This document shows positions 43,345 to 61,578 of a stretch of 64,000 nt of DNA, one piece after another (the first letter of the stretch is position 1; each line of letters starts with the position of its first letter). Origin of the DNA: an uncultured Acidobacteriota bacterium (lineage in GTDB: Bacteria; Acidobacteriota; Vicinamibacteria; Vicinamibacterales; UBA2999); contig CAVSKE010000040.1 in assembly GCA_963728305.1 (NCBI GenBank), forward strand, positions 94,005-158,004. The letters are read 5' to 3'. Position numbers and translations under genes: made by a program. Below the pieces are notes generated by a model. It was not told where the DNA came from, ran no database searches, and was given only the letters and a program-made list of their open reading frames with translations.

Positions 43345-43490
43345 GCGTTCGGATCGTTCGTAACGTTCGGATCGTTCGTAACGTTCGGATCGTTCGGATC
43401 GTTCGGATCGTTCGGATCGTTCATCACAGAACGGTTCGAACGATCGTGGAACGATTCGAACGCCCCGAACGCTCGAACGATCCGAACGCT
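43344..43490. repeat. Hairpin of inverted 9-bp tandem repeats (CGTTCGGAT family, second copy)
   Basis: About 8-9 forward CGTTCGGAT/CGTTCGTAA units, then degenerate reverse units ending ATCCGAACGCT. Confidence 0.9.
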
Positions 43491-43491
43491 A

Positions 43492-44040
43492 TTACGTGCC
43501 TGGGTCCACCTGAACGTCGCTCGCGACACGCCGCACGCCCTTCACCGCATACGCGACCTGCACGGCCTCGAGGTGCGACTCGAGCGACTTCGATCTGCCA
43601 CCCAGCAACACCACACCCTTGTTGACCGACGCGACCGAGATGCCACTGTCCTTCACTCGAGCGTTGGCTTTGAACGCGGCCTGCACGGCGTCCTTGACGT
43701 CGGCGTCGGCGCGGTCGGCCACTTCGCGCTTCGAGTTCGGAACGATCTGCAGCAGATTCTTCACGCTCTTCACGCCGTCGACCTTCGCGGTGACCTGCTC
43801 GGCCTTGGCCTTCTCGCCATCGGTCGCCACCTTGCCGTGGAGCGTGACCACGCCATTGACAGTATCGACGTTAAGATCCGCCGCGCTCACGTTGTCGGCG
43901 GTCATCAGCGCGATCGTCGTCTTCATCGTGATCCAGGCGTCGGCCGTGTCCGCGGCCATGGCCGGCGGCCCACCGATGCACAATCCCAGCGCAAGCGCAG
44001 CCGCGACGATATGGAAGTGCTTGGTTCGTCCTGTTGTCAT
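43492..44040 (-). CDS. Dual-BON-domain periplasmic protein (OsmY-like)
   Basis: Signal peptide; DAWITMK, VDTVNGVVTLHG, VDGVKSVKNLL, second BON; GGGAGG RBS. Confidence 0.92.
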   Translation of the reverse strand: MTTGRTKHFHIVAAALALGLCIGGPPAMAADTADAWITMKTTIALMTADNVSAADLNVDTVNGVVTLHGKVATDGEKAKAEQVTAKVDGVKSVKNLLQIVPNSKREVADRADADVKDAVQAAFKANARVKDSGISVASVNKGVVLLGGRSKSLESHLEAVQVAYAVKGVRRVASDVQVDPGT

Positions 44041-44075
44041 CTGAAGGCCTCCCTTGACCATTCAGGACTACGCAC

Positions 44076-44092
44076 TGCAACGCCGGTGCCCA
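44076..44092 (-). promoter_or_regulatory. Sigma54 (-24/-12) promoter motif
   Basis: TGGGCAC-CGGCG-TTGCA (GG-N10-GC) upstream of the BON gene. Confidence 0.7.
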
Positions 44093-44135
44093 TCAATGGC
44101 GCGGCGTTACTTTTGCGGGCCGTGGCAGGGGCGGG

Positions 44136-46421
44136 TCAGATATAGGACTTGCCGGTGCGGCCGGCGAGACTTGCCACGGTCGCGACGAGCTCGGTGGGAT
44201 CGACGGGCTTGGTGAGATGCGTTTGAAAGCCCGCGAGCAGCGCGCGACGTCGGTCTGCGACGCGTGCGAGCGCGGTGAGCGCCGCCGCCGGCACCGATGA
44301 CATCGGCGCCTGCATCTCACGCACGCGCTTCATGAAGTCATAGCCGTCCTGATCCGGCATCGCCACGTCGCTCACGATCACGTCGGGCACCAGGCCTTCC
44401 TGAATCGTCTGCAGCGCGGCCTTCGCCGTCTCGCATGCCGATACGCGCGCGCCGGCATCCTCGAGCAGCCGCTGCACGAGATCGCGGGCGTCGGCTTCAT
44501 CGTCAACCACCATCACGACGATGTCGGCGAGCACCGGCTTTGTACGCGACGACGCATCAACGTGCTCGGGCGCGTGATGCTGCGCCGATCGACTGAACGG
44601 CAGAGTGACGGTGAACACTGCACCGCGCCCCGAACCGGCACTCGAGGCCTGCACCGATCCGCCATGCATCTCAGCGACGTGCTTCACAATCGCCAGTCCC
44701 AGCCCGAGGCCGCCGTGCCGGCGAGTGGACGAGGAATCCCCCTGCCGAAACCGCTCGAAGATGTGTGGCAGCAGCTCCGGAGCGATCCCCTGGCCATCGT
44801 CAATCACTTCAATCTGCGCGCAATCGTCCACGATACGCAATCCAACTGTGACAATGCCGTCGCGGCTGGTGAACTTGATGGCGTTGCTTACCAGGTTCCA
44901 CACCACCTGCTGTAACCGCGGCCGATCGCCATTCACATCAGGATCGCTGTCGTAGACCGTGCTGAGATGGACGCCTCTGGCATCGGCGGCCGCGCGCGCC
45001 GAAGCCACGACCTCGTCGATGACCGACGCCAGGTTCACAGCGTGCACGTCGAGCGGCAGCTTGCCCGAGACGATGCGACTGACGTCGAGAAGATCGTCAA
45101 TGATCTGCGCTTGCCGACGGGAATTGCGATCGATCACCTCGATCGCCTTGCGCAAGGTCTCCCGGCTCTGGTCCTGCTTCAACACGCCAACCCACCCGAC
45201 AATCGAGTTGAGCGGCGTGCGCAGCTCGTGGGAGACGGTGGCAAGAAACTCGTCCTTCATCTGCATCGCACGCTCGGCATCGACGCGCGCCTGACGTTCA
45301 CGCTCGAGCAATTGATTGCGCTCTTCGTCGGCACGCTTGTGTTCCGTGATGTCGCGCGAGATCGCCAGCAGCCGCAGCACGGTGCCGCTCTCGTCGCGAA
45401 TCGGCGTGACGATCACATCCCACCACTTCGGTGTCCCCCGGGCAGTGGCACAGAACGCCTGGAACCGTCCCTCGCCGGCACGCACCGCGTCGGCGAGCGC
45501 GGCACCCGCGAGGCTGGCGCTCTCGCCCCACACCTCGACCCACAGCCGCCGGTTGAAGCCCGGCTCGTCGTCCACTTCGAGCAGCCGCGCCGCGGCGCGA
45601 TTCATGGAGATGAGCCGGCCGTCCGGCTCGAGAATCTGAATGCAGTCTCCCGAGTTGTCGAGGATGCTGCGGGTAGTCCGCTCGCTGCGCTGCAAGTCCT
45701 GCGTCGCCGATTGCATCGAGCTCTCGGCGCGCAGACGTCCCGCGATCTCGCGCTCGAATGCGATGCGCCGGCGTTCGAGACTGTGATCCACCGTCGCCGT
45801 GACGAGGCCGAGTGTCCCTGCCAACAGCAGGCTCGCGATGGCAAACACCAACGAGATCCGTCTCGCCAGGCGCGCTTCCTCGCCTCGCTGATCGAGCAAC
45901 GACTGCTCGACCATCTTCATGTCGGCCGCGGCCAGCCGGATGCGAGCCATCTGCTGATTCCCGGCATCGGAGGCAATCCCGCCGACCGCATCAGCCGTGC
46001 GCCCGGCCTGATGTGACTCGATTGCCGTCTGCAGCTGATTCAGTCGCTCACGGCTCAACGCGCTGAGCTGCTCTGCACGGGCACGCTGATCGGGATCGTC
46101 GGCTTCGAGTGTGGCGAGCGCTGCCGTGGCGGCTCCGACGCGCGGACCGGCGTCCATGTACGGCTCGAGCAGTGAGGCGCGGCCGGTGAGCAGATACTCG
46201 CGCGCGCTGTTCTCGGCGTCGAGCAGACTGGTGATGAGCTCGTCGGTCGCACTCAGTGCCTTATGCGCGCGATCGATCTGTTCGGACGCTATTGAGAAAC
46301 GAAAGTACTGGTGGAAGGCTAGCCCGCCGCACACAAGCAGCAGCGCGATGATCACCAGAAAGACCCCACGCCACTTCGGCACTGGTTGAATGTCCGGGTC
46401 TGAGGGGCGAAGTTCGGTCAT
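44136..46421 (-). CDS. CHASE3/PAS hybrid sensor kinase with receiver domain
   Basis: TM-CHASE3 (DAENSAREYLLTG)-TM, PAS, VSHELRTPL, NAIKFT, GLGLGL, REC (SDVAMP). Confidence 0.93.
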   Translation of the reverse strand: MTELRPSDPDIQPVPKWRGVFLVIIALLLVCGGLAFHQYFRFSIASEQIDRAHKALSATDELITSLLDAENSAREYLLTGRASLLEPYMDAGPRVGAATAALATLEADDPDQRARAEQLSALSRERLNQLQTAIESHQAGRTADAVGGIASDAGNQQMARIRLAAADMKMVEQSLLDQRGEEARLARRISLVFAIASLLLAGTLGLVTATVDHSLERRRIAFEREIAGRLRAESSMQSATQDLQRSERTTRSILDNSGDCIQILEPDGRLISMNRAAARLLEVDDEPGFNRRLWVEVWGESASLAGAALADAVRAGEGRFQAFCATARGTPKWWDVIVTPIRDESGTVLRLLAISRDITEHKRADEERNQLLERERQARVDAERAMQMKDEFLATVSHELRTPLNSIVGWVGVLKQDQSRETLRKAIEVIDRNSRRQAQIIDDLLDVSRIVSGKLPLDVHAVNLASVIDEVVASARAAADARGVHLSTVYDSDPDVNGDRPRLQQVVWNLVSNAIKFTSRDGIVTVGLRIVDDCAQIEVIDDGQGIAPELLPHIFERFRQGDSSSTRRHGGLGLGLAIVKHVAEMHGGSVQASSAGSGRGAVFTVTLPFSRSAQHHAPEHVDASSRTKPVLADIVVMVVDDEADARDLVQRLLEDAGARVSACETAKAALQTIQEGLVPDVIVSDVAMPDQDGYDFMKRVREMQAPMSSVPAAALTALARVADRRRALLAGFQTHLTKPVDPTELVATVASLAGRTGKSYI

Positions 46422-46454
46422 GCGGCGAGGAGAGGCACACTAATGTCTTCGAAA

Positions 46455-46471
46455 CGCAAATCCACTGCCAG
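46455..46471 (-). promoter_or_regulatory. Sigma54 promoter motif
   Basis: CTGGCAG-TGGAT-TTGCG upstream of the CHASE3 kinase. Confidence 0.55.
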
Positions 46472-46512
46472 GGTGCCGGGCGGTCGAGCTGGTGGAGGCC
46501 GAAAGCACCGAC

Positions 46513-48050
<1,538 letters not shown>

Positions 48051-48054
<4 letters not shown>

Positions 48055-48716
48055 GGAGCCGAAGCCTCCTCGGGTAATGCCACACCAACGGCCCCCCGTC
48101 CGTTGGCCGTAGCCCAAATTCGCCCCCCGGCCTCCGCTATCAAGCGGCAAGCCAGGGGAAGGGCGACACCGTGCCCTCCGCGCCACGGATCAAACGTCTC
48201 TGGGGGGGTTGACACGAGAGCGGCGCGATCCTCGTCGCAGCCCAGCAGGAACCGTGCCTCTTTTTTCTCTTCCTTCACTGAGACGCGTACCGCTTCGTTC
48301 CGGGTGGATTGCCTGACGGCGCACAGGATTACCGCGAGTGAGTGCACCAGACGGTCAAGGTGAACCCCTCGCACCGTGCCTGTGAGCTCCGGGTCGGCGA
48401 CGAATACTAAAGGCGAACACCGTGCCGTACACGCTTCGGTCACTTGCTCGACGAACTGCGAAACGCGAAGTGATGTGACCGGCCCGTCCGTGGCCTCTCG
48501 CTCGGCAACAAAGGCCGCGGCATCCTCGCAGAGTCGGCCAATACGGCCAAGCGCTTCCATCGACTGCACGAGCGCGCGTGAACGGTCAGCCTCAGACTCG
48601 AGCCGATTCTGGTGTAAGAGGCGCAGATAGCCCAGCGCGACACTCAGCGGCGCTCGCAAATCGTGGATGAGCAGGTTCAGCGCTTTCACGCTCTCTAGGT
48701 CATGAGTTGCTGGCAT
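48051..48716 (-). CDS. Sensorless HisKA protein with degenerate ATPase domain (possible phosphotransferase)
   Basis: H-box IHDLRAPL; N and G1 boxes absent; residual GGHGVAL...AGGRIW; ATGA overlap with the activator. Confidence 0.7.
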
Positions 48717-48754
48717 ACGAGTTGAACCACAAGAATCGCAAGCAGTAGTGACTG

Positions 48755-49189
48755 ATGACTTCAAATCCTCATTCGACCCCGGACGCGCCATCAGGCCCGA
48801 GCCTCCTCATCGTCGACGATTACCCCGACGCGCTCGATGTCTGGGGAGTCTATCTCCGTGCCGAAGGTTTCAAGGTCCTGACCGCCGCTGACGGCCAGAG
48901 TGCGTTCGCCGAAGCGGTGCGCGAGAAGCCCGACGTGATCATCATGGATCTCGAGCTTCCGGGGAAATCGGGATACGAAGTGGCGCGTGAACTGAAGGCG
49001 CGCCCCGATACTTGCGCGATTCCTCTAATCGCCGCCACCGGGTATTCGCACGTCAAGCAACTCGATCTGGCACGTGCGTCCGGCTTCGACGCGGTGATGG
49101 TAAAGCCATGCGATCCGCAGTCGCTGGTCGCTGAGATTCGTCGCCTCCTACGCAAACACGACGCGGCTCCTGCGGCGGCGACTGAGTAA
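48755..49189 (+). CDS. Single-domain response regulator
   Basis: LIVDD, IMDLELP, ATG, VKP. Confidence 0.9.
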   Translation: MTSNPHSTPDAPSGPSLLIVDDYPDALDVWGVYLRAEGFKVLTAADGQSAFAEAVREKPDVIIMDLELPGKSGYEVARELKARPDTCAIPLIAATGYSHVKQLDLARASGFDAVMVKPCDPQSLVAEIRRLLRKHDAAPAAATE

Positions 49190-49248
49190 CAGCCTTCCAT
49201 TTTAGGGCAAGCCATTACCTCAGCAGGCCGGTTCGGTACCACACGACT

Positions 49249-49265
49249 CTGGCACGAAGCCTGCT
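49249..49265 (+). promoter_or_regulatory. Sigma54 promoter motif
   Basis: CTGGCAC-GAAGC-CTGCT ending ~25 nt before the ATG at 49291. Confidence 0.65.
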
Positions 49266-49290
49266 CAGCCCAGCAATCCAAGGAGCGCAC

Positions 49291-49677
49291 ATGCCTGCGG
49301 ATGCCACCATTCAGAACGCGCTGATCGTCATCGCGATCGCGCTCAGTGTTCAGACATTGCTGATGCTCTGCACAGTGATCGCCATCTCGGTGGCCTGGAA
49401 GCGGGCGCAATCGACGCTCGACACACAGCTCAACCGCTTTGCCGAGCGCCTGGATGACATGGCCATGCAGACGCGCGTGGCTGTCAGCGCGCTGGAGCGT
49501 TCCACTAACCAGGTGAACACAGTGATTCACGATGCCGGCAACGTCCTGCGTGGTGTCGGGTCGTTCGTGGCAGCACCGCGATCATTGTTCATGACCGGCA
49601 TGGCGTCAGCCGTAACGGCGTTCTCGCGGTGGCGCCGATCGCGTCATCAACAGCAGGAGCACGCGGCAGCGCGGTGA
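49291..49677 (+). CDS. Membrane-anchored coiled-coil protein (YtxG/DUF948-like)
   Basis: N-terminal TM + amphipathic helix; AAGGAG RBS; position upstream of a YtxH-like gene. Confidence 0.55.
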   Translation: MPADATIQNALIVIAIALSVQTLLMLCTVIAISVAWKRAQSTLDTQLNRFAERLDDMAMQTRVAVSALERSTNQVNTVIHDAGNVLRGVGSFVAAPRSLFMTGMASAVTAFSRWRRSRHQQQEHAAAR

Positions 49678-49704
49678 GAGGCGCGCGGCCGCAGGAGGAT
49701 TCAC

Positions 49705-50037
49705 ATGTACGAGCGTCACGAAGATCAAAACGGGGGGTTTGCCGCCGGCCTCATTACCGGCGCCATTGTCGGCGCAGGACTGGCGCTGCTGCTGGCGCCG
49801 AAATCCGGCGCGGCGCTGCGCGATGAGCTCGGTGAGTCATGGCTCTCGCTGCGCGAGGCGGTCGGACGCCGTTATCGCGATCTGGCAGAACGCGCCGGCG
49901 TCGAGCTGGACAACCTGCAGGAGCGCATCGACCAGACCGCGGACGCGGTGGAGTCGAACGCCACCAAGCTCGTCGAGAAAGCGGCGCGGGAAGCGCGGCA
50001 GGTGTGGGGAGAACGAACGCCGAGAAACGATGTGTAG
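49705..50037 (+). CDS. YtxH-domain protein
   Basis: FAAGLITGAIVGAGLALLLAPKSGAALR; AGGAGG RBS. Confidence 0.88.
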   Translation: MYERHEDQNGGFAAGLITGAIVGAGLALLLAPKSGAALRDELGESWLSLREAVGRRYRDLAERAGVELDNLQERIDQTADAVESNATKLVEKAAREARQVWGERTPRNDV

Positions 50038-50040
50038 AAG

Positions 50041-50056
50041 TGGCACTCCGCTTGCT
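50041..50056 (+). promoter_or_regulatory. Near-consensus sigma54 promoter motif
   Basis: TGGCAC-TCCGC-TTGCT. Confidence 0.7.
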
Positions 50057-50066
50057 CCTTTGATTG

Positions 50067-50150
50067 GTCCATCCCCGCTTGGCGCGCGCTCTGCGAGCCG
50101 ACATTCGTTCCCCGTCCGTGCGAACGGGAGGCAGCATCTGCCTCCCTTCG
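50067..50150 (+). ncRNA. Candidate sigma54-dependent small RNA or structured leader
   Basis: Begins at the predicted +1 of the 50041 promoter; ends in perfect hairpin GGGAGGCAG-CAT-CTGCCTCCC (50126-50146). Confidence 0.35.
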
Positions 50151-50240
50151 CTATCCAACAGGCCTAAAAAATCATCGTTTCGCTCCCGCAGTTTGTAACG
50201 TCCGGGCGCGAGCTCTCACCACTTGACCGAGAGGTGATGG

Positions 50241-53437: not shown

Positions 53438-53679
53438 AATAGACGATTTTTTGAGCAATTCGGTATAGGTTCGCCGCATATGTCTGGGGGCCCACGCGGC
53501 CCCTATCAGGTGTAAAATTTCCTCCGTTGCAACCGTATACAGGTTGCGGGCCGACGAGTTTGCCCGTCGGCTCTATTGCCGCCGTTTCGTGCCTGCCGCA
53601 CCGTAGCCTTCGGCGAGGGCGGGCGTCGCGCGCGTGTGGGGTTGGTCGCTCGACTTTTCAGTCAAGAGGTGGGGCCAAG

Positions 53680-55337
53680 ATGCGCACCCGGACTTCCACG
53701 TTCCTGTCTTCCGTCACTGCCATCGTTATCTTTGGCGCACTCGCCTTTGCGGCTGGCGAGAGTCTCGTCGTTGACGCCGCAAAGCGTCACGATACGACGG
53801 GCGTGCGTGGGCTGATTGCCAAACGCGCGAACGTCAACGAGACGTCGCGAGACGGGTCCACTGCGCTGTTGTGGGCCGCGTACCATTCGGACGTCGCGAT
53901 GACGCGCGCGCTGATCGCCGCCGGCGCGAATCCGAATCTCTCGAACAAGTACGGCATCACACCGCTGCTGCAGGCCAGCCGCACCGGCGCCGATGAAGTC
54001 GTGCAGGCGCTGCTTCGTGCCGGCGCGGATCCCGCGCTCGCACATACGGAAGGCGAGACGCCGCTCATGGCGGCGGCGTTTGCCGGCAGTCTGCCGACAG
54101 TCCGGCTGCTGCTCGAAGCCAACGCCGACGTCAACGCGGTGGACTCGTATCAGAAACAGACCGCCCTGATGCGCGCGGCCGCTGAAGGCCATGCCGAGGT
54201 CATTCAGGCCCTGCTCGATGCGAAGGCCGATCCCAACAAGAAAGCGCACGTCACTGGCCTCGAGGAACGCAAGCACGGCGATCACCCGACCGGGGGATTC
54301 ACCGCGCTGATGTTCGCGGCGCGTAACGGTCACGAAGCGGCCATTCGCGCCCTGATCAAGGGCGGCGCGGATCCGAAGCTGACCAACGGCGACGGCGCCA
54401 CTCCGACCATCATCGCCATCGTCAACGATCGATTCGACCTTGCCAAGACGCTGGTCGACCTCGGCGCCGATCCGAACGACGGCTCGCTGTACTTCGCCGT
54501 GGATATGCACGATGCGACCAGCGACATGCGCGCGCGCGATGGATCGCGGCTGCGCGCCGATCACAGCAACACGATCGGCGCAGTCGATCTCGTGAAGGTG
54601 CTGCTCGATCGCGGCGCGGATCCCAACAAGCCTTTCGTCGGCCAGCTGCACTCGACGACGCTGTGCTGCGGTGAAGAGGTCAATTCGTCGCCGTTCTATC
54701 GCGCGGCGGTGGCGGCCGACGTCGAATCCCTGAAGCTGATGATCGCCAAGGGCGCCAAGGTGGAATGGAGCCCCGCCGAGGTGAAGAAGGAAGGCCGGGC
54801 GGTGGCGGCCGCGGGATGAACGCCAACGTCGGCAAGACGCCGATGATGATGGCGCTCAACGGCGGCCGTGGTGCCGCGTTCGCCGCCGGTCCCGGCTTCG
54901 ATCGTCTTGGACCACCGCCGTTCCGCGAAGCGTCGAACCGCGAGCCGGTGGAAGCGATCAAGGTGCTGCTGGCCGCCGGCGCGGACGCCAACGCCAAGGA
55001 TCCCAGCGGAGCGACGATGCTCCATCAGGCGGTTACGGCGCGGCAGGTCGCCATCATCCGCGAGCTCGTTGCCAAAGGCGCCAAACTCGACGCGGTGAAC
55101 AAGGACAACCTGACGCCGCTGCTGCTGGCCGAGAAGCCCGAGCCTCCGCCGCCGCCCGGCAACAACAACGATCCGAACACGTATCGTCGCAAGCGCGATT
55201 CACGTGACGACGTCATCGCCACACTGCGCGAGCTGATGAAGCTCGGACCGAACGATCCGGCGCCGGTGCCTCCCCCGCTGCCAGCCGACCAACAGAAGAA
55301 AGCCGACGAGAAGAAGGCGGACGAGGCGGCTCAATGA
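53680..55337 (+). CDS. Secreted ankyrin-repeat protein (indel ~54795)
   Basis: Signal peptide; multiple G-x-T-[AP]-L ankyrin units (GSTALLWA, GITPLLQA, GETPLMAA, GFTALMFA). Confidence 0.9.
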
Positions 55338-57911
55338 AGAAGGCTCTCGTCAGCGCGGCGCTTGTCTGGGTCGGCGCCGCGATGCTGTTCGCGCAGACGG
55401 GCAGCACGTCACGTCCCGCCTCGTCGCCGGCGCAGGCCCCGGCGACGGCGAAATCGGCCGCCGCTCCGCAGACGCCATCTGCAAGGCCTGCGTCCCCAGC
55501 GGTGACTCCGACTCGCGCCGTTGCGGCCGTGGCGTCGCCGGCCGATGCGCCGAAGCATCAAGCGCTCGTCAAGCAGTACCTGCGTCAGCTGCCACAACAG
55601 CAAGGCACCGCAGCCGGCAAACGACCCCGTCGATCTCGAAACCGCCCGTCTCGACAACCTGCTGCCGCATGCCACGACGTGGGAGCGCGTGCTGCGGAAG
55701 CTGAGCGTGCGCGCGATGCCGCCGCAAGGCATGCCGCATCCGGCTGAAGCTGACTACACCGCGTTTACGTCGTGGCTCTCGGCGTCACTCGATCAGGCGT
55801 GGCAGGGCAAGAGCACACCGGGCCGGTACGTGGTGCACCGCTTGAACCGCACCGAGTACGGCAACGCGGTCCGCGATCTCCTCGCGCTCGAGATCGATGT
55901 GGTCGAACTGTTGCCGAGCGACGGCGCCGACTTCGGCTTCGACAACATCGCCTCGTCGCTGCGAACATCCCCGCTGCTGCTCGAGCGCTATCTCACGGCC
56001 GCGCAGCGGATCAGCACGATGGCGGTCGGCGACCGCGCGGTGCGTCCCGGCACCAGCGAGTATCAGATCAGCCGCGAGTTCACGCAGAGCGGCCACATCG
56101 ATGGTCTCCCGCTCGGTACGCGCGGCGGGACGCAGGTGCGGCACGTCTTCCCCGCTGACGCGGAGTACAAGCTGTTCGGGCGTCTGGTGCGTGGCGTCGA
56201 AGAAGGCTACGCGGGCGTCGAAGGCAATGAGACGCCGGATACGTTCATCATCACGATTGACGGCGAAGAGGTCTACTCGGCGCAGATCGGCGGCCCGAAG
56301 GATCACGAGGTCCAGGCCAAGGACATGAACGAGGCCAAGACAATCATCGACGCGCGCATGACCGGCAAAGCCTTCGTCACAGCCGGTCCTCACGACGTCG
56401 GGTTCACCTGGCGCGAGCGTCCGGGGCAGCGGCAGGACGTCTGGCAGCCTGCGCTTCGCGACAGCCAGGAAGTCCACATGATCGCCGGTCTGCCACGGCT
56501 CAAGACCGTCGGCGTCGAAGGCCCCTACGACGTGAAGGGCGTGAGCACGTCGGCGAGCCGGGACAAAGTGTTCATCTGCCGGCCAACATCAGCCGCAGAT
56601 GAATCGGCATGCGCGCAGCGGATCTTCACCAACCTCGCGCGGCGCGCCTATCGCCGGCCGGTCACCGCCGAAGACGTCGACCCGCCGATGCAGTTCTACA
56701 AGCAGGCGCGCGACGCCAAGGGCGACTTCGACGCGGGTGTGCGCGCCGGGCTCGCACGCATTCTCGCCAGCACGTCGTTCCTCTATCGCATGGAGCGCGA
56801 CGCGGCGGGCGTGCAGGCCGGGACGGCGCACGCGGTGAGCGACGTCGAGCTCGCGTCGCGTCTGTCGTTCTTCCTGTGGAGCAGCATCCCGGACCAGACG
56901 TTGATGGATCTCGCGGCCGCCGGGAAGCTGCGTCAGCCGGGGGTGCTCGCCGGGCAGGTCCGCCGCATGATCGCCGACGAACGCGCAAACGCGCTGGTCA
57001 ACAACTTTGTCGGGCAATGGCTGCAGCTGCGCAACCTCGAGTCGAAGGTCGCGCCCGACCTGCTGATGTTCCCCGACTTCGATGACAACATCCGCAAGGC
57101 GTTCCGTCGCGAGACCGAGTTGTTCTTCGGCTACATCCTGCGTGACAACCGCAACGCACTGGAGTTGCTGAGCGCCGACTACACGTTCGTCAACGAGCGG
57201 CTGGCCAGGCACTACGGCATTCCGGGCGTCTACGGCTCGCGGTTCCGTCAGGTGAAGCTGACCGACCCGAATCGTCGCGGACTCCTCGGCCAGGGCAGCG
57301 TCCTGTCGTTGACGTCTGTCGCGACGCGGACCTCACCTGTCTACCGTGGCAAGTTCGTGCTCGCCACCTTCCTCAACACGCCGCCGCCACCGCCGCTGCC
57401 GAATGTGCCGGCGCTCGAGGAAGCCGCCAAGGGCGCCAAGGCCGCGCCGAAGACCGTGCGCGAAACGCTGGAACTGCACCGCAGCAGCCCGGTCTGCGCG
57501 TCCTGTCATCGCATCATCGATCCTCCCGGCTTCGCCCTGGAGAACTTCAATTCAATCGGTCAATGGCGTGAAAAGACCGAAAATGGCGCCTCGATCGATG
57601 CAGCCGGCATCCTGGCCGACGGCACGAAGGTCAACGGGCCCATCGCGTTGCGCACTGCCATTCTGAGCAGACCTGATGCCTTTATTACCGTGCTGACCGA
57701 GCGCATAATGACCTATGCGCTGGGCCGGGGTGTCGAACCATCCGATATGCCGGTCGTCCGGAGCATCGTGAGGAAGGCTGGGCAGAACAACTATCGGCTG
57801 GCGTCTATCGTTCAAAGCATCGTCGAGAGCGCACCATTTCAGATGCGGACCCGGCTGGAGCCGGAAGGGACCCCTACTAAAGTCGCTGAAGCGAGGTCAC
57901 AGCAGCCATGA
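55334..57911 (+). CDS. DUF1592/DUF1588/DUF1585/DUF1587/DUF1595 multidomain cytochrome-c-like protein (indel ~55580)
   Basis: CVSCH, HRLNRTEY, GFDN, RRAYRRP, ELASRLSFFLWSS, TSPVYRG, CASCH, YALGR. Confidence 0.9.
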
Positions 57912-60508: not shown

Positions 60509-61489
60509 TTACGGACGATAGGCCTGCGGGGCGCCGCGGTATTCGTTCTGCGAGATCACGCCGTCGCGATTGGCATCCTGTCGATCGAAGCTGGTATGTG
60601 ACCATGGCCACTCGTCCAGCCGGATGCGCCCGTCGCCATTCATGTCGACGCGGGTGAAGTTCGTGGTACGAGTCATACTGTCGAACTCGCCCCTGGCCAA
60701 TCGACGGTCATCGTTGGCATCCAGACGATCGAAGGCGTACTGGCCGCCGTCCCACTCGTTAGGGTCGATGAATCCGTTGCCATTGATGTCGAGGTAGTCG
60801 AAGCGATCGTCGCTGGCGACCTCATCGTCCTGTGCGTTGCGATTGCCGCGGCGTTGCGCAGCCACGCTGACTTCCTCACCGGAGAGCCTGCCGTCGTTGT
60901 TCCAGTCGTAGGTGTTGAAGGTGCGCGCGTTGCCCCGCCACTCAGTGCGCGCAATGGCACCGTCGCTATTGATGTCCATCCGCCGGAAACGCATGCTGCT
61001 GCCATTGCCAGGCAGACTGCTGCTCTGCTGACTTGGCTGCTCGCCCGGTGCGCAGAAGCGGACGCTCGAGCCCGGCACCGTCCAATCACCGAACTGCTGC
61101 CGGTATTCAGCCGAGTCGACGATCTGGTCGATGAGCGGCGTCACGCCGCGGCGCGACACCAGGTTGACGGCGTTCTTCAGCCCTTCGGCGTCGGGCCCGC
61201 GATTCAGGAGGTGGCGATATATATCGGCCACGAGGGGCTCGCGCGCCTGATTGCCGAAGCGTTGGAGGTGCTCCGGCGATTTCGCGATGCCGCGGACGAT
61301 CTCGCGGACCGTCGTGCGATTGTTCAAGCGCTCCACCCACCCCGCAGCGCCGCTGTCGGCTGACCGCTGGAGCACCTGGCGATACACCTGTTCAATGACC
61401 TGCTGCGCATCCGTCGTGCACGGCTGCTGAGCCCCCGCGACGGACGGGACAACGGTAAGCGCGCCGAAGAATACGGCTACACGCCACAT
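60509..61489 (-). CDS. Secreted protein: phycobilisome-linker/DUF4214-like domain + six EF-hand-like motifs
   Basis: Signal peptide; VYRQVLQR, TVREIVRGIAKSPE, YRHLLNRGPD, IVDSAEYRQQFGDWTVP; six DxNxDxxI/L loops; GGAGG RBS. Confidence 0.8.
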   Translation of the reverse strand: MWRVAVFFGALTVVPSVAGAQQPCTTDAQQVIEQVYRQVLQRSADSGAAGWVERLNNRTTVREIVRGIAKSPEHLQRFGNQAREPLVADIYRHLLNRGPDAEGLKNAVNLVSRRGVTPLIDQIVDSAEYRQQFGDWTVPGSSVRFCAPGEQPSQQSSSLPGNGSSMRFRRMDINSDGAIARTEWRGNARTFNTYDWNNDGRLSGEEVSVAAQRRGNRNAQDDEVASDDRFDYLDINGNGFIDPNEWDGGQYAFDRLDANDDRRLARGEFDSMTRTTNFTRVDMNGDGRIRLDEWPWSHTSFDRQDANRDGVISQNEYRGAPQAYRP

Positions 61490-61562
61490 GACATCCCTCC
61501 TCGAGTTCTCATTCCACGCACGCACGTGTGCATGGAGCGCCTGCACGTCCAAATGAGAGTGG

Positions 61563-61578
61563 TGCAAGTGCGGTACCC
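61563..61578 (-). promoter_or_regulatory. Sigma54-like promoter motif
   Basis: GGGTAC-CGCAC-TTGCA (GG-N10-GC) upstream of the EF-hand gene. Confidence 0.5.

Follow-up and report, generated by a model that had tools for sequence, protein, structure and literature searches.

Sigma54-type promoters mark general-stress genes and a small RNA in Vicinamibacterales, with a predicted phosphorelay at one locus

Gene content of the locus

The window analysed here is a stretch of 64,000 nucleotides (nt) from an uncultured Acidobacteriota bacterium of the order Vicinamibacterales (assembly G000; 6.06 Mb, 75% complete), and our subject is one locus within it, at 43492-50150, in which regulatory and stress-type genes lie behind promoter boxes of the sigma54 type. 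We conclude that Vicinamibacterales likely run their general stress response via sigma54 and that this locus likely encodes one of two activator branches with a predicted phosphorelay, a reading to which we assign a probability of roughly 0.55. A first-pass annotation of the bare DNA had proposed a CHASE3/PAS hybrid kinase, an H-box protein, a GAFTGA-bearing activator, a receiver, a BON gene and a ytxG/ytxH-like pair, and domain searches confirmed this set. The genes, including one distal gene, are as follows:

43492-44040, minus strand: secreted, OsmY-like BON protein (two Pfam BON domains; NCBIfam OsmY under cut-off)
44136-46421, minus strand: membrane CHASE3-PAS-HisKA-HATPase-REC hybrid histidine kinase (H, N, G1 and G2 boxes and receiver intact)
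46513-48054, minus strand: enhancer-binding protein A (EBP-A), a REC-AAA-HTH_8 sigma54 activator (GAFTGA at residue 225; orthologues in 27 of 61 genomes)
48051-48716, minus strand: H-box protein, a stand-alone DHp+CA protein and predicted phosphotransferase (weak HisKA match only, E 1.3e-4; start codon uncertain)
48755-49189, plus strand: single-domain receiver (domain search)
49291-49677, plus strand: ytxG-like gene (own sequence without Pfam match; orthologues match DUF948 weakly)
49705-50037, plus strand: YtxH gene (Pfam), in one operon with the ytxG-like gene (49291-50037)
60509-61489, minus strand: secreted DUF4214/EF-hand protein, the gene behind a distal box at 61578

Catalytic motifs are kept in the kinase, EBP-A and the receiver. 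EBP-A has all parts of a group I bacterial enhancer-binding protein, i.e., a receiver, an AAA+ domain with Walker A/B motifs and GAFTGA, and a Fis-type helix-turn-helix, and it falls under all named NCBIfam cut-offs. Its start codon overlaps the stop codon of the H-box gene (ATGA), which suggests translational coupling of the two. The genome encodes rpoN (TIGR02395 above cut-off), a point that the first-pass annotation had left to be checked, and 23 strong sigma54-activator domains out of 28 matches.

Sigma54 boxes at the locus

Boxes were scored with a fixed weight matrix taken from the sigma54 consensus and written after the sites in the window had been seen; their conservation was assessed in 37 metagenome loci by scanning 130 nt upstream of orthologues for scores of at least 11.5. 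The six boxes proposed earlier were all found, each displaced by no more than 1 nt, along with a seventh (48259, minus strand) that had escaped the earlier list:

44075-44091, minus strand: box before the BON gene (score 14.0; kept in 4/4 metagenome orthologues and in loci L002 and L152)
46454-46470, minus strand: box before the kinase gene (score 13.0; kept in 10/12 orthologues)
48243-48259, minus strand: internal box within the H-box gene, 205 nt before the EBP-A start (kept in 29/32 orthologues)
48711-48727, plus strand: non-canonical receiver box with TTGA/TTGT at -12 (kept in 33/35 orthologues)
49250-49266, plus strand: box before the ytxG/ytxH-like operon (score 15.2; kept in 24/25 orthologues)
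50041-50057, plus strand: near-consensus box of a small RNA (score 15.5)
61562-61578, minus strand: box before the DUF4214/EF-hand gene (score 13.0; kept in 2/2 orthologues)

These boxes have the form of sigma54 promoters, with GG-N10-GC at a fixed spacing and oriented upstream of genes. The expectation that they would recur in orthologous upstream regions held before the ytxG, receiver, kinase and BON genes, and the distal box of the EF-hand gene was kept in orthologues too. Before other genes of the locus the 130-nt scan gave 0/21 for ytxH, which is second in its operon, 1/34 for the H-box gene and 1/27 for the activator gene, and chance motifs are ruled out by spacing, orientation and these orthologue controls. 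The receiver box, which overlaps the probable H-box start codon on the opposite strand, is also present in another genus (G036) and another family (G040). Within 43492-50150, six sites score at least 13 where 0.34 are expected from the genome-wide rate, and the Poisson probability of 1.6e-6 is optimistic given that the matrix was written after the sites had been seen; the conservation tests do not depend on that value.

The internal box at 48259 is the predicted autoregulatory promoter of EBP-A. Its -12 half is covered by the longest invariant run of the H-box gene (17 nt in 17 distinct gap-free genes), Ala154 is always encoded by GCA in these genes, a 9% codon, and at one further locus Ala has changed to Val yet a GGTAC variant of the box is kept. 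Since 26 of 100 highly degenerate codons of the H-box gene are likewise invariant, this invariance is support for the box and not proof. Between the receiver and ytxG-like genes (49190-49245) there is, in addition, a conserved intergenic word about 60-75 nt before the box, an imperfect palindrome that might be an enhancer or a terminator.

Sigma54 boxes and stress genes across genomes

As had been proposed, sigma54 boxes mark general-stress-type genes in G000 and order-wide. At a score of at least 13.5, 70 intergenic boxes of G000 lie upstream of genes and point towards them, 39 of them at most 130 nt away; wrong spacings gave 10, 30, 18 and 33, and the wrong orientation gave 25. Two amtB-like genes and pilin-like genes, all named by eye, stand behind boxes as positive controls. 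Pfam naming covered 51 genes picked from 20 G000 regions, among 88 proteins searched. Behind the boxes it identified CsbD, Ku, DUF5670 (twice), BON, YtxH, DUF4142, YflT-like, LysM and MgtC, as well as baeRF10, 6PGD, DksA, holin_3_6 with DUF3618, and a cyclase/Zn-dehydrogenase; metabolic genes in the same position are an alpha-amylase-family gene (treY by eye) and a glycosyltransferase-debranching-oxidoreductase operon.

Our marker list is the general-stress marker set of RpoS, SigB and EcfG. In G000, 7 of 14 marker loci have a box scoring at least 12.5 within 200 nt, compared with a background of 118 of 5381 genes; the operon box covers ytxH, and the box of a frameshifted BON gene lies further upstream. 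Counting only families that the first-pass annotation had named, three of five outside the window are boxed. By its marker gene content, the boxed set matches a general stress regulon.

In relatives we took, for each of three families, the best 29 loci outside G000 (of 57, 93 and 115 matches listed). A box scoring at least 11.5 precedes csbD in 22/29 and DUF5670 genes in 22/29, on a background of 229/5381 genes (about 4%), with wrong-spacing controls of 0.25 for csbD, 0.75 for DUF5670 and 1.0 for ku. Six reverse-strand hits at csbD are mostly the divergent ku promoter, and two csbD misses sit behind a boxed DUF5670 gene. Outside the class, csbD has a box in 9/26 loci (controls 0), and several families are without any. 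Unpublished genomes contribute to the tallies: G008 is among the 61 genomes, G105 and G082 are two of the nine csbD positives outside the class, and G202 is negative.

A predicted small RNA behind the 50041 box

The motif reported earlier at 50041 is a real box, and what it precedes is a predicted structured small RNA instead of a protein gene:

50066-50157, plus strand: predicted sigma54-dependent small RNA, about 90 nt with two hairpins (ends approximate)
50079-50101, plus strand: hairpin 1 (fold and covariation), followed by a C/A-rich linker
50126-50146, plus strand: G+C hairpin 2 (fold and covariation)

This conserved non-coding element folds with a z-score of -3.2, and its conserved 5' end lies at the distance expected from the sigma54 box. 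A first model with the promoter included matched 24/61 genomes, and 25 of 29 inspected matches were genuine; those at L188, L189, L190 and L195 were discarded as false. G000 itself has a second copy with its own box (contig C39, 16854-16951, minus strand), facing a CBS-like gene (named by eye) in convergent orientation. Across 29 sequences, 94.5% of cells are paired, compared with 45-56% in slid controls, and both sides change in 7 of 12 pairs (31 cells), which none of 500 shuffles reached.

Within the order, a promoter-free model had matches in 26 of 151 genomes, and these 34 matches comprised five training sequences, four without a locus and 25 that were assessed. All 25 of these new copies have a box 22-32 nt upstream (24 scoring at least 13.5; controls 0). 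The next gene lies on the opposite strand in 13/24 new copies, and neighbours vary. These varied, often opposite-strand neighbours and the terminal hairpin rule out that 50041 serves the beta-helix gene as its promoter or leader. With its own promoter box, a stand-alone position and a conserved structure, the element has the marks of a trans-acting small RNA, and from the box we infer that it is a stand-alone sigma54-dependent one. Outside the order, the promoter-free model found nothing in 151 genomes of the phylum (strict filters, 27 candidates scored in each), and Rfam covariance models gave no match over the element in the window stretch and 10 homologue loci. The RNA likely acts post-transcriptionally; that it does so by base pairing via its C-rich linker, perhaps with the Hfq that the genome encodes, is a guess, and a duplex scan for targets returned no shared or credible one.

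The H-box protein

The predicted structure of the H-box protein is a soluble 221-residue model with the DHp+CA fold of kinase cores (predicted local distance difference test, pLDDT, 84), and a relative is known at 74% identity. Of the 150 top-ranking profile hits, 126 stand alone and measure 205-270 residues, and in this family the first-pass impression of a dead ATPase domain is borne out: the His is kept in 122/126, the N-box Asn motif occurs in 0/126 and G1 is mostly lost (DxGxG in 6/126 by a loose pattern), with G2-like glycines kept. Because the N-box and G1 are lost, the protein should not bind ATP as kinases do, and with neither N-box Asn nor G1 DxGxG it is by its motifs no active HisKA kinase.

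Its proposed identity as a ChpT-like protein fared less well. Pfam HPTransfase had no hit among eight family members and no ChpT chain appeared among 44 sequence hits in the PDB, so that by sequence we rejected ChpT membership. The fold of ChpT, a DHp domain with His next to a degenerate CA domain, is present in the H-box protein; ChpT ranks under ordinary kinase cores in a fold search (Z 9.0 vs 14.5), a ranking that alone excludes nothing. PhyT and PhyK are closer analogues. In the available excerpts of the two papers, Sphingomonas melonis PhyT has a degenerate ATPase domain, takes phosphate from a single-domain receiver and, in a His-dependent manner, passes it to the stress regulator (PMC5898713), and Caulobacter PhyK acts likewise in MrrA-PhyK-PhyR (PMC5964349). 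This is an analogy and not membership: unlike these proteins, the H-box protein is soluble and sensorless, with a HisKA-type HE/DxR H-box instead of HRxxN. As an aside, the H-box gene is usually divergent from msrPQ at loci L005-L028, L159 and L160, and G036 has two H-box paralogues.

Two candidate activators

Of the 27 EBP-A genomes among the 61, 26 also have the H-box gene, and the exception lies at a contig end. In most relatives the pair stands in another context, where a strong box separates it from the second-activator and polysaccharide-export genes that it heads. At such loci the receiver near the H-box gene matches the window receiver best among those of G000 (11/11), and the hybrid kinase encoded nearby resembles a G000 kinase other than the CHASE3 one more closely (7/7). 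Since receiver linkage is kept and the kinase swapped, the core would be the H-box protein, EBP-A and the receiver, with variable kinases; the CHASE3 kinase is therefore not the fixed relay member that it had been taken for.

Another candidate activator, EBP-B, occurs in 38/61 genomes beside YtxH, YihY/BrkB, BON, SDR, MlaE or DUF5670-csbD genes, and in G036 both activators lie within one stress locus.

For enhancers, both amtB-like promoters of G000 (C27:215463 and C8:134329) have two GACA-N4-TGTC palindromes each, a candidate nitrogen-activator site that is found in 0/30 stress-type promoters of this genome. Dyad and word counts on these 30 promoters gave nothing significant, and an enhancer search by expectation maximization beat a weak shuffle control only. 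Among 83 non-redundant promoters, CTCAGC in 26/83 (p 5.5e-7) and CTCTTA (5.5e-6) are leads only, the best p among 30 random sets being 7.8e-5. Fewer than 75 free upstream bases are available at 14/28 stress-type promoters, compared with 0/6 nitrogen or pilin promoters, and by analogy with Rrp2 their activation may be enhancer-poor, or it may use degenerate sites. A candidate EBP-B site comes from a clade without EBP-A (L142-L149), in which two conserved elements, a TGTAAG-N2-TTACA palindrome and the word CTCATCAG, precede the csbD box.

Proposed mechanism and alternatives

Our model starts from what was seen directly, namely the boxes with their conservation and enrichment, the covariation of the RNA, the domain anatomy and the loss of ATP motifs in the H-box family. 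Promoters and RNA are well supported; the order of the relay and the division of labour between activators are what we infer. Interchangeable sensor kinases, here the CHASE3-PAS hybrid, would phosphorylate the single-domain receiver or the receiver that they carry themselves. From there the phosphate would pass via the His of the catalytically dead DHp-CA protein to the receiver domain of EBP-A, and EBP-A would oligomerise and open sigma54 complexes. The co-occurrence of EBP-A and H-box genes, their ATGA coupling and the receiver linkage that survives rearrangement support such a relay. The boxes before the kinase, receiver and, internally, activator genes would amount to positive feedback, in keeping with the feedback on the system's own kinase suggested earlier. 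Much of the regulon is likely in the hands of EBP-B, which is more widespread and has ytxH/yihY/csbD-type genes as neighbours; EBP-A likely adds an envelope and exopolysaccharide output.

Several results weigh against this reading. In G000, ytxH2, a ferritin gene and ku2 have no box, and yciF and a transglycosylase-associated gene have weak ones only (10.8). Ku, DUF4142 and DUF5670 were picked as markers after the scan had been seen, ku in relatives has a box in only 7/29 loci, and related genomes are not independent. For the stress promoters we found no shared palindromic enhancer, and they are therefore not attributable to either activator. A second RpoD-like sigma factor of G000 (contig C21, L297:559-2097; under RpoD and RpoS cut-offs) and 41 sigma70-region hits could carry stress control instead. 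The H-box gene occurs without EBP-A in four genomes, and where the pair stands in the other context, the first box downstream of EBP-A belongs to the second-activator/polysaccharide-export operon and not to stress genes (8/8 loci inspected). A HExRT/N motif (T/N at H+4), which is linked to phosphatase activity, is present in 86/126 relatives of the H-box protein. Finally, our searches found neither EBP-A nor the H-box gene in 14 of 35 box-bearing genomes, and in two of these no EBP-B either.

With 14 such genomes, a single master activator at the window locus was rejected, and EBP-A is probably not the sole master. The alternative that survives best goes further and makes EBP-B alone the master of the stress regulon, the window relay being an envelope/exopolysaccharide regulator that landed among stress genes and has local targets only. 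The wide distribution of EBP-B, which the other 12 of the 14 relay-less genomes encode, fits this as do its stress-type neighbours and the polysaccharide-export operons headed by EBP-A elsewhere. However, EBP-B was not found in eight box-bearing genomes, including the 75% complete G000, where the yihY neighbour was likewise not found, the relay lies within stress islands of different genera and families (G036, G040, L030, L230 and L231), and its own genes carry boxes. We thus consider EBP-B as lone master rather unlikely.

Decidedly unlikely is a role of the H-box protein as dedicated phosphatase or sequestering inhibitor of EBP-A, with kinases phosphorylating EBP-A directly and the regulon unchanged. 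The T/N residues at H+4 would suit a phosphatase, and PhyT, in the excerpted account, also sequesters its regulator (PMC5898713). However, the window clade has Ala at H+4 and the His is kept nearly throughout the family. Hybrid kinases without an HPt domain, moreover, normally require a transfer protein. Very unlikely, in turn, is that the boxes serve a state-specific sigma54 programme (biofilm, desiccation, dormancy or low oxygen) or mainly silence genes that another sigma factor induces: pilin-like, exopolysaccharide and gas-vesicle-region genes (partly named by eye) also stand behind boxes, G000 has other sigma factors and Myxococcus NmpR likewise runs an oxygen regulon (PMC11841059, in part), but the targets are the RpoS/SigB/EcfG marker set and the nitrogen promoters have an enhancer of their own that stress-type promoters lack.

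Relation to known systems

The sigma54 reading describes a real, probably undescribed variant of general stress control. Acidobacteriota are among the most abundant soil bacteria, and their survival of drying and starvation is largely a blank, for which the circuit offers something concrete, i.e., promoters and two candidate activators along with two new families, one of predicted phosphotransferases and one of RNAs. A literature search that left most subscription journals outside its coverage found no sigma54-run general stress regulon or such RNA for Acidobacteriota, and the main text of a comparative sigma54 study, as available in part, has no occurrence of "acidobact" (PMC3162934).

Several known systems share parts of the layout, all compared here from the available portions of the sources. 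The systems Pak-SdrG-PhyT-PhyR and MrrA-PhyK-PhyR likewise control general stress and combine several kinases with a single-domain receiver and with a kinase-like phosphotransferase that works through a conserved His, a role that is predicted in the window (PMC5898713, PMC5964349); their output is PhyR/NepR/EcfG, whereas ours would be a sigma54 AAA+ activator. The CckA-ChpT-CtrA/CpdR relay of Caulobacter combines a hybrid kinase, a DHp protein with degenerate CA domain, a regulator and a single receiver (bioRxiv 10.1101/2021.03.08.434431), but the window has no HPTransfase or ChpT sequence hit and sigma54 instead of CtrA as output. The nearest layout for two activators, an RNA and a polysaccharide locus is that of Vibrio LuxO/SypG (qrr1 and the syp locus), in which hybrid kinases feed two sigma54 activators that control Qrr1 and polysaccharide genes (PMC10162802); transfer there runs through an HPt domain, whereas here the targets are of the general-stress type and the RNA has no Rfam family.

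The target types, i.e., osmY/BON, csbD, ytxGH, ku, yciF and trehalose and glycogen genes, resemble those of the RpoS, SigB and EcfG regulons (PMC3162934, PMC8103513), but promoters of the -24/-12 type need an ATP-driven activator. Borrelia Rrp2-RpoN-RpoS also puts sigma54 upstream of a stress-type programme with enhancer-free activation (PMC1976401); there sigma54 drives rpoS, whereas the boxes here stand directly before effector genes. Myxococcus NmpRSTU, also from a soil bacterium, is a multi-component phosphorelay to an NtrC-like activator and a sigma54 regulon, but with an oxygen regulon, a defined palindromic enhancer and kinase-active NmpS, and the available text mentions neither a dead-ATPase transfer protein nor an RNA (PMC11841059).

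Taken to its full extent, the system could be a fourth general-stress wiring beside RpoS, SigB and EcfG: direct transcription by sigma54, compact promoters often without enhancer room, two activators, one of them reached via an independently evolved family of dead-kinase phosphotransferases, and an order-wide new small RNA as post-transcriptional arm. We propose this broader claim tentatively, at slightly less than even odds. If true, a general stress regulon can run on an ATP-gated sigma54 switch, and the design of a single receiver with a dead-kinase transferase evolved anew outside the Alphaproteobacteria, with another output.

Additional observations

In G036, an RsbRD_N-HisKA kinase gene directly follows EBP-A and has a counterpart in L030, a possible stress input, and rsbR/rsbT/rsbX stressosome-like genes (by eye) lie at G000:C18:38627-40600 (L299). 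Gas-vesicle genes occur within boxed stress islands of G013 and G059 (L146, L158). Four receiver-less GSFTGA sigma54 activators are encoded at G000:C11:170253-178785 and C36:58949, three of them clustered with PilZ-like genes (by eye). Genes at 53527-57911 of the window and on other contigs are split by apparent frameshifts, probably long-read errors, and are unbroken in G034. Between the convergent TonB-receptor-like and BON genes, at 43347-43490, a tandem 9-nt repeat faces an inverted copy, forming a long imperfect hairpin that is possibly an element like repetitive extragenic palindromes (REP).

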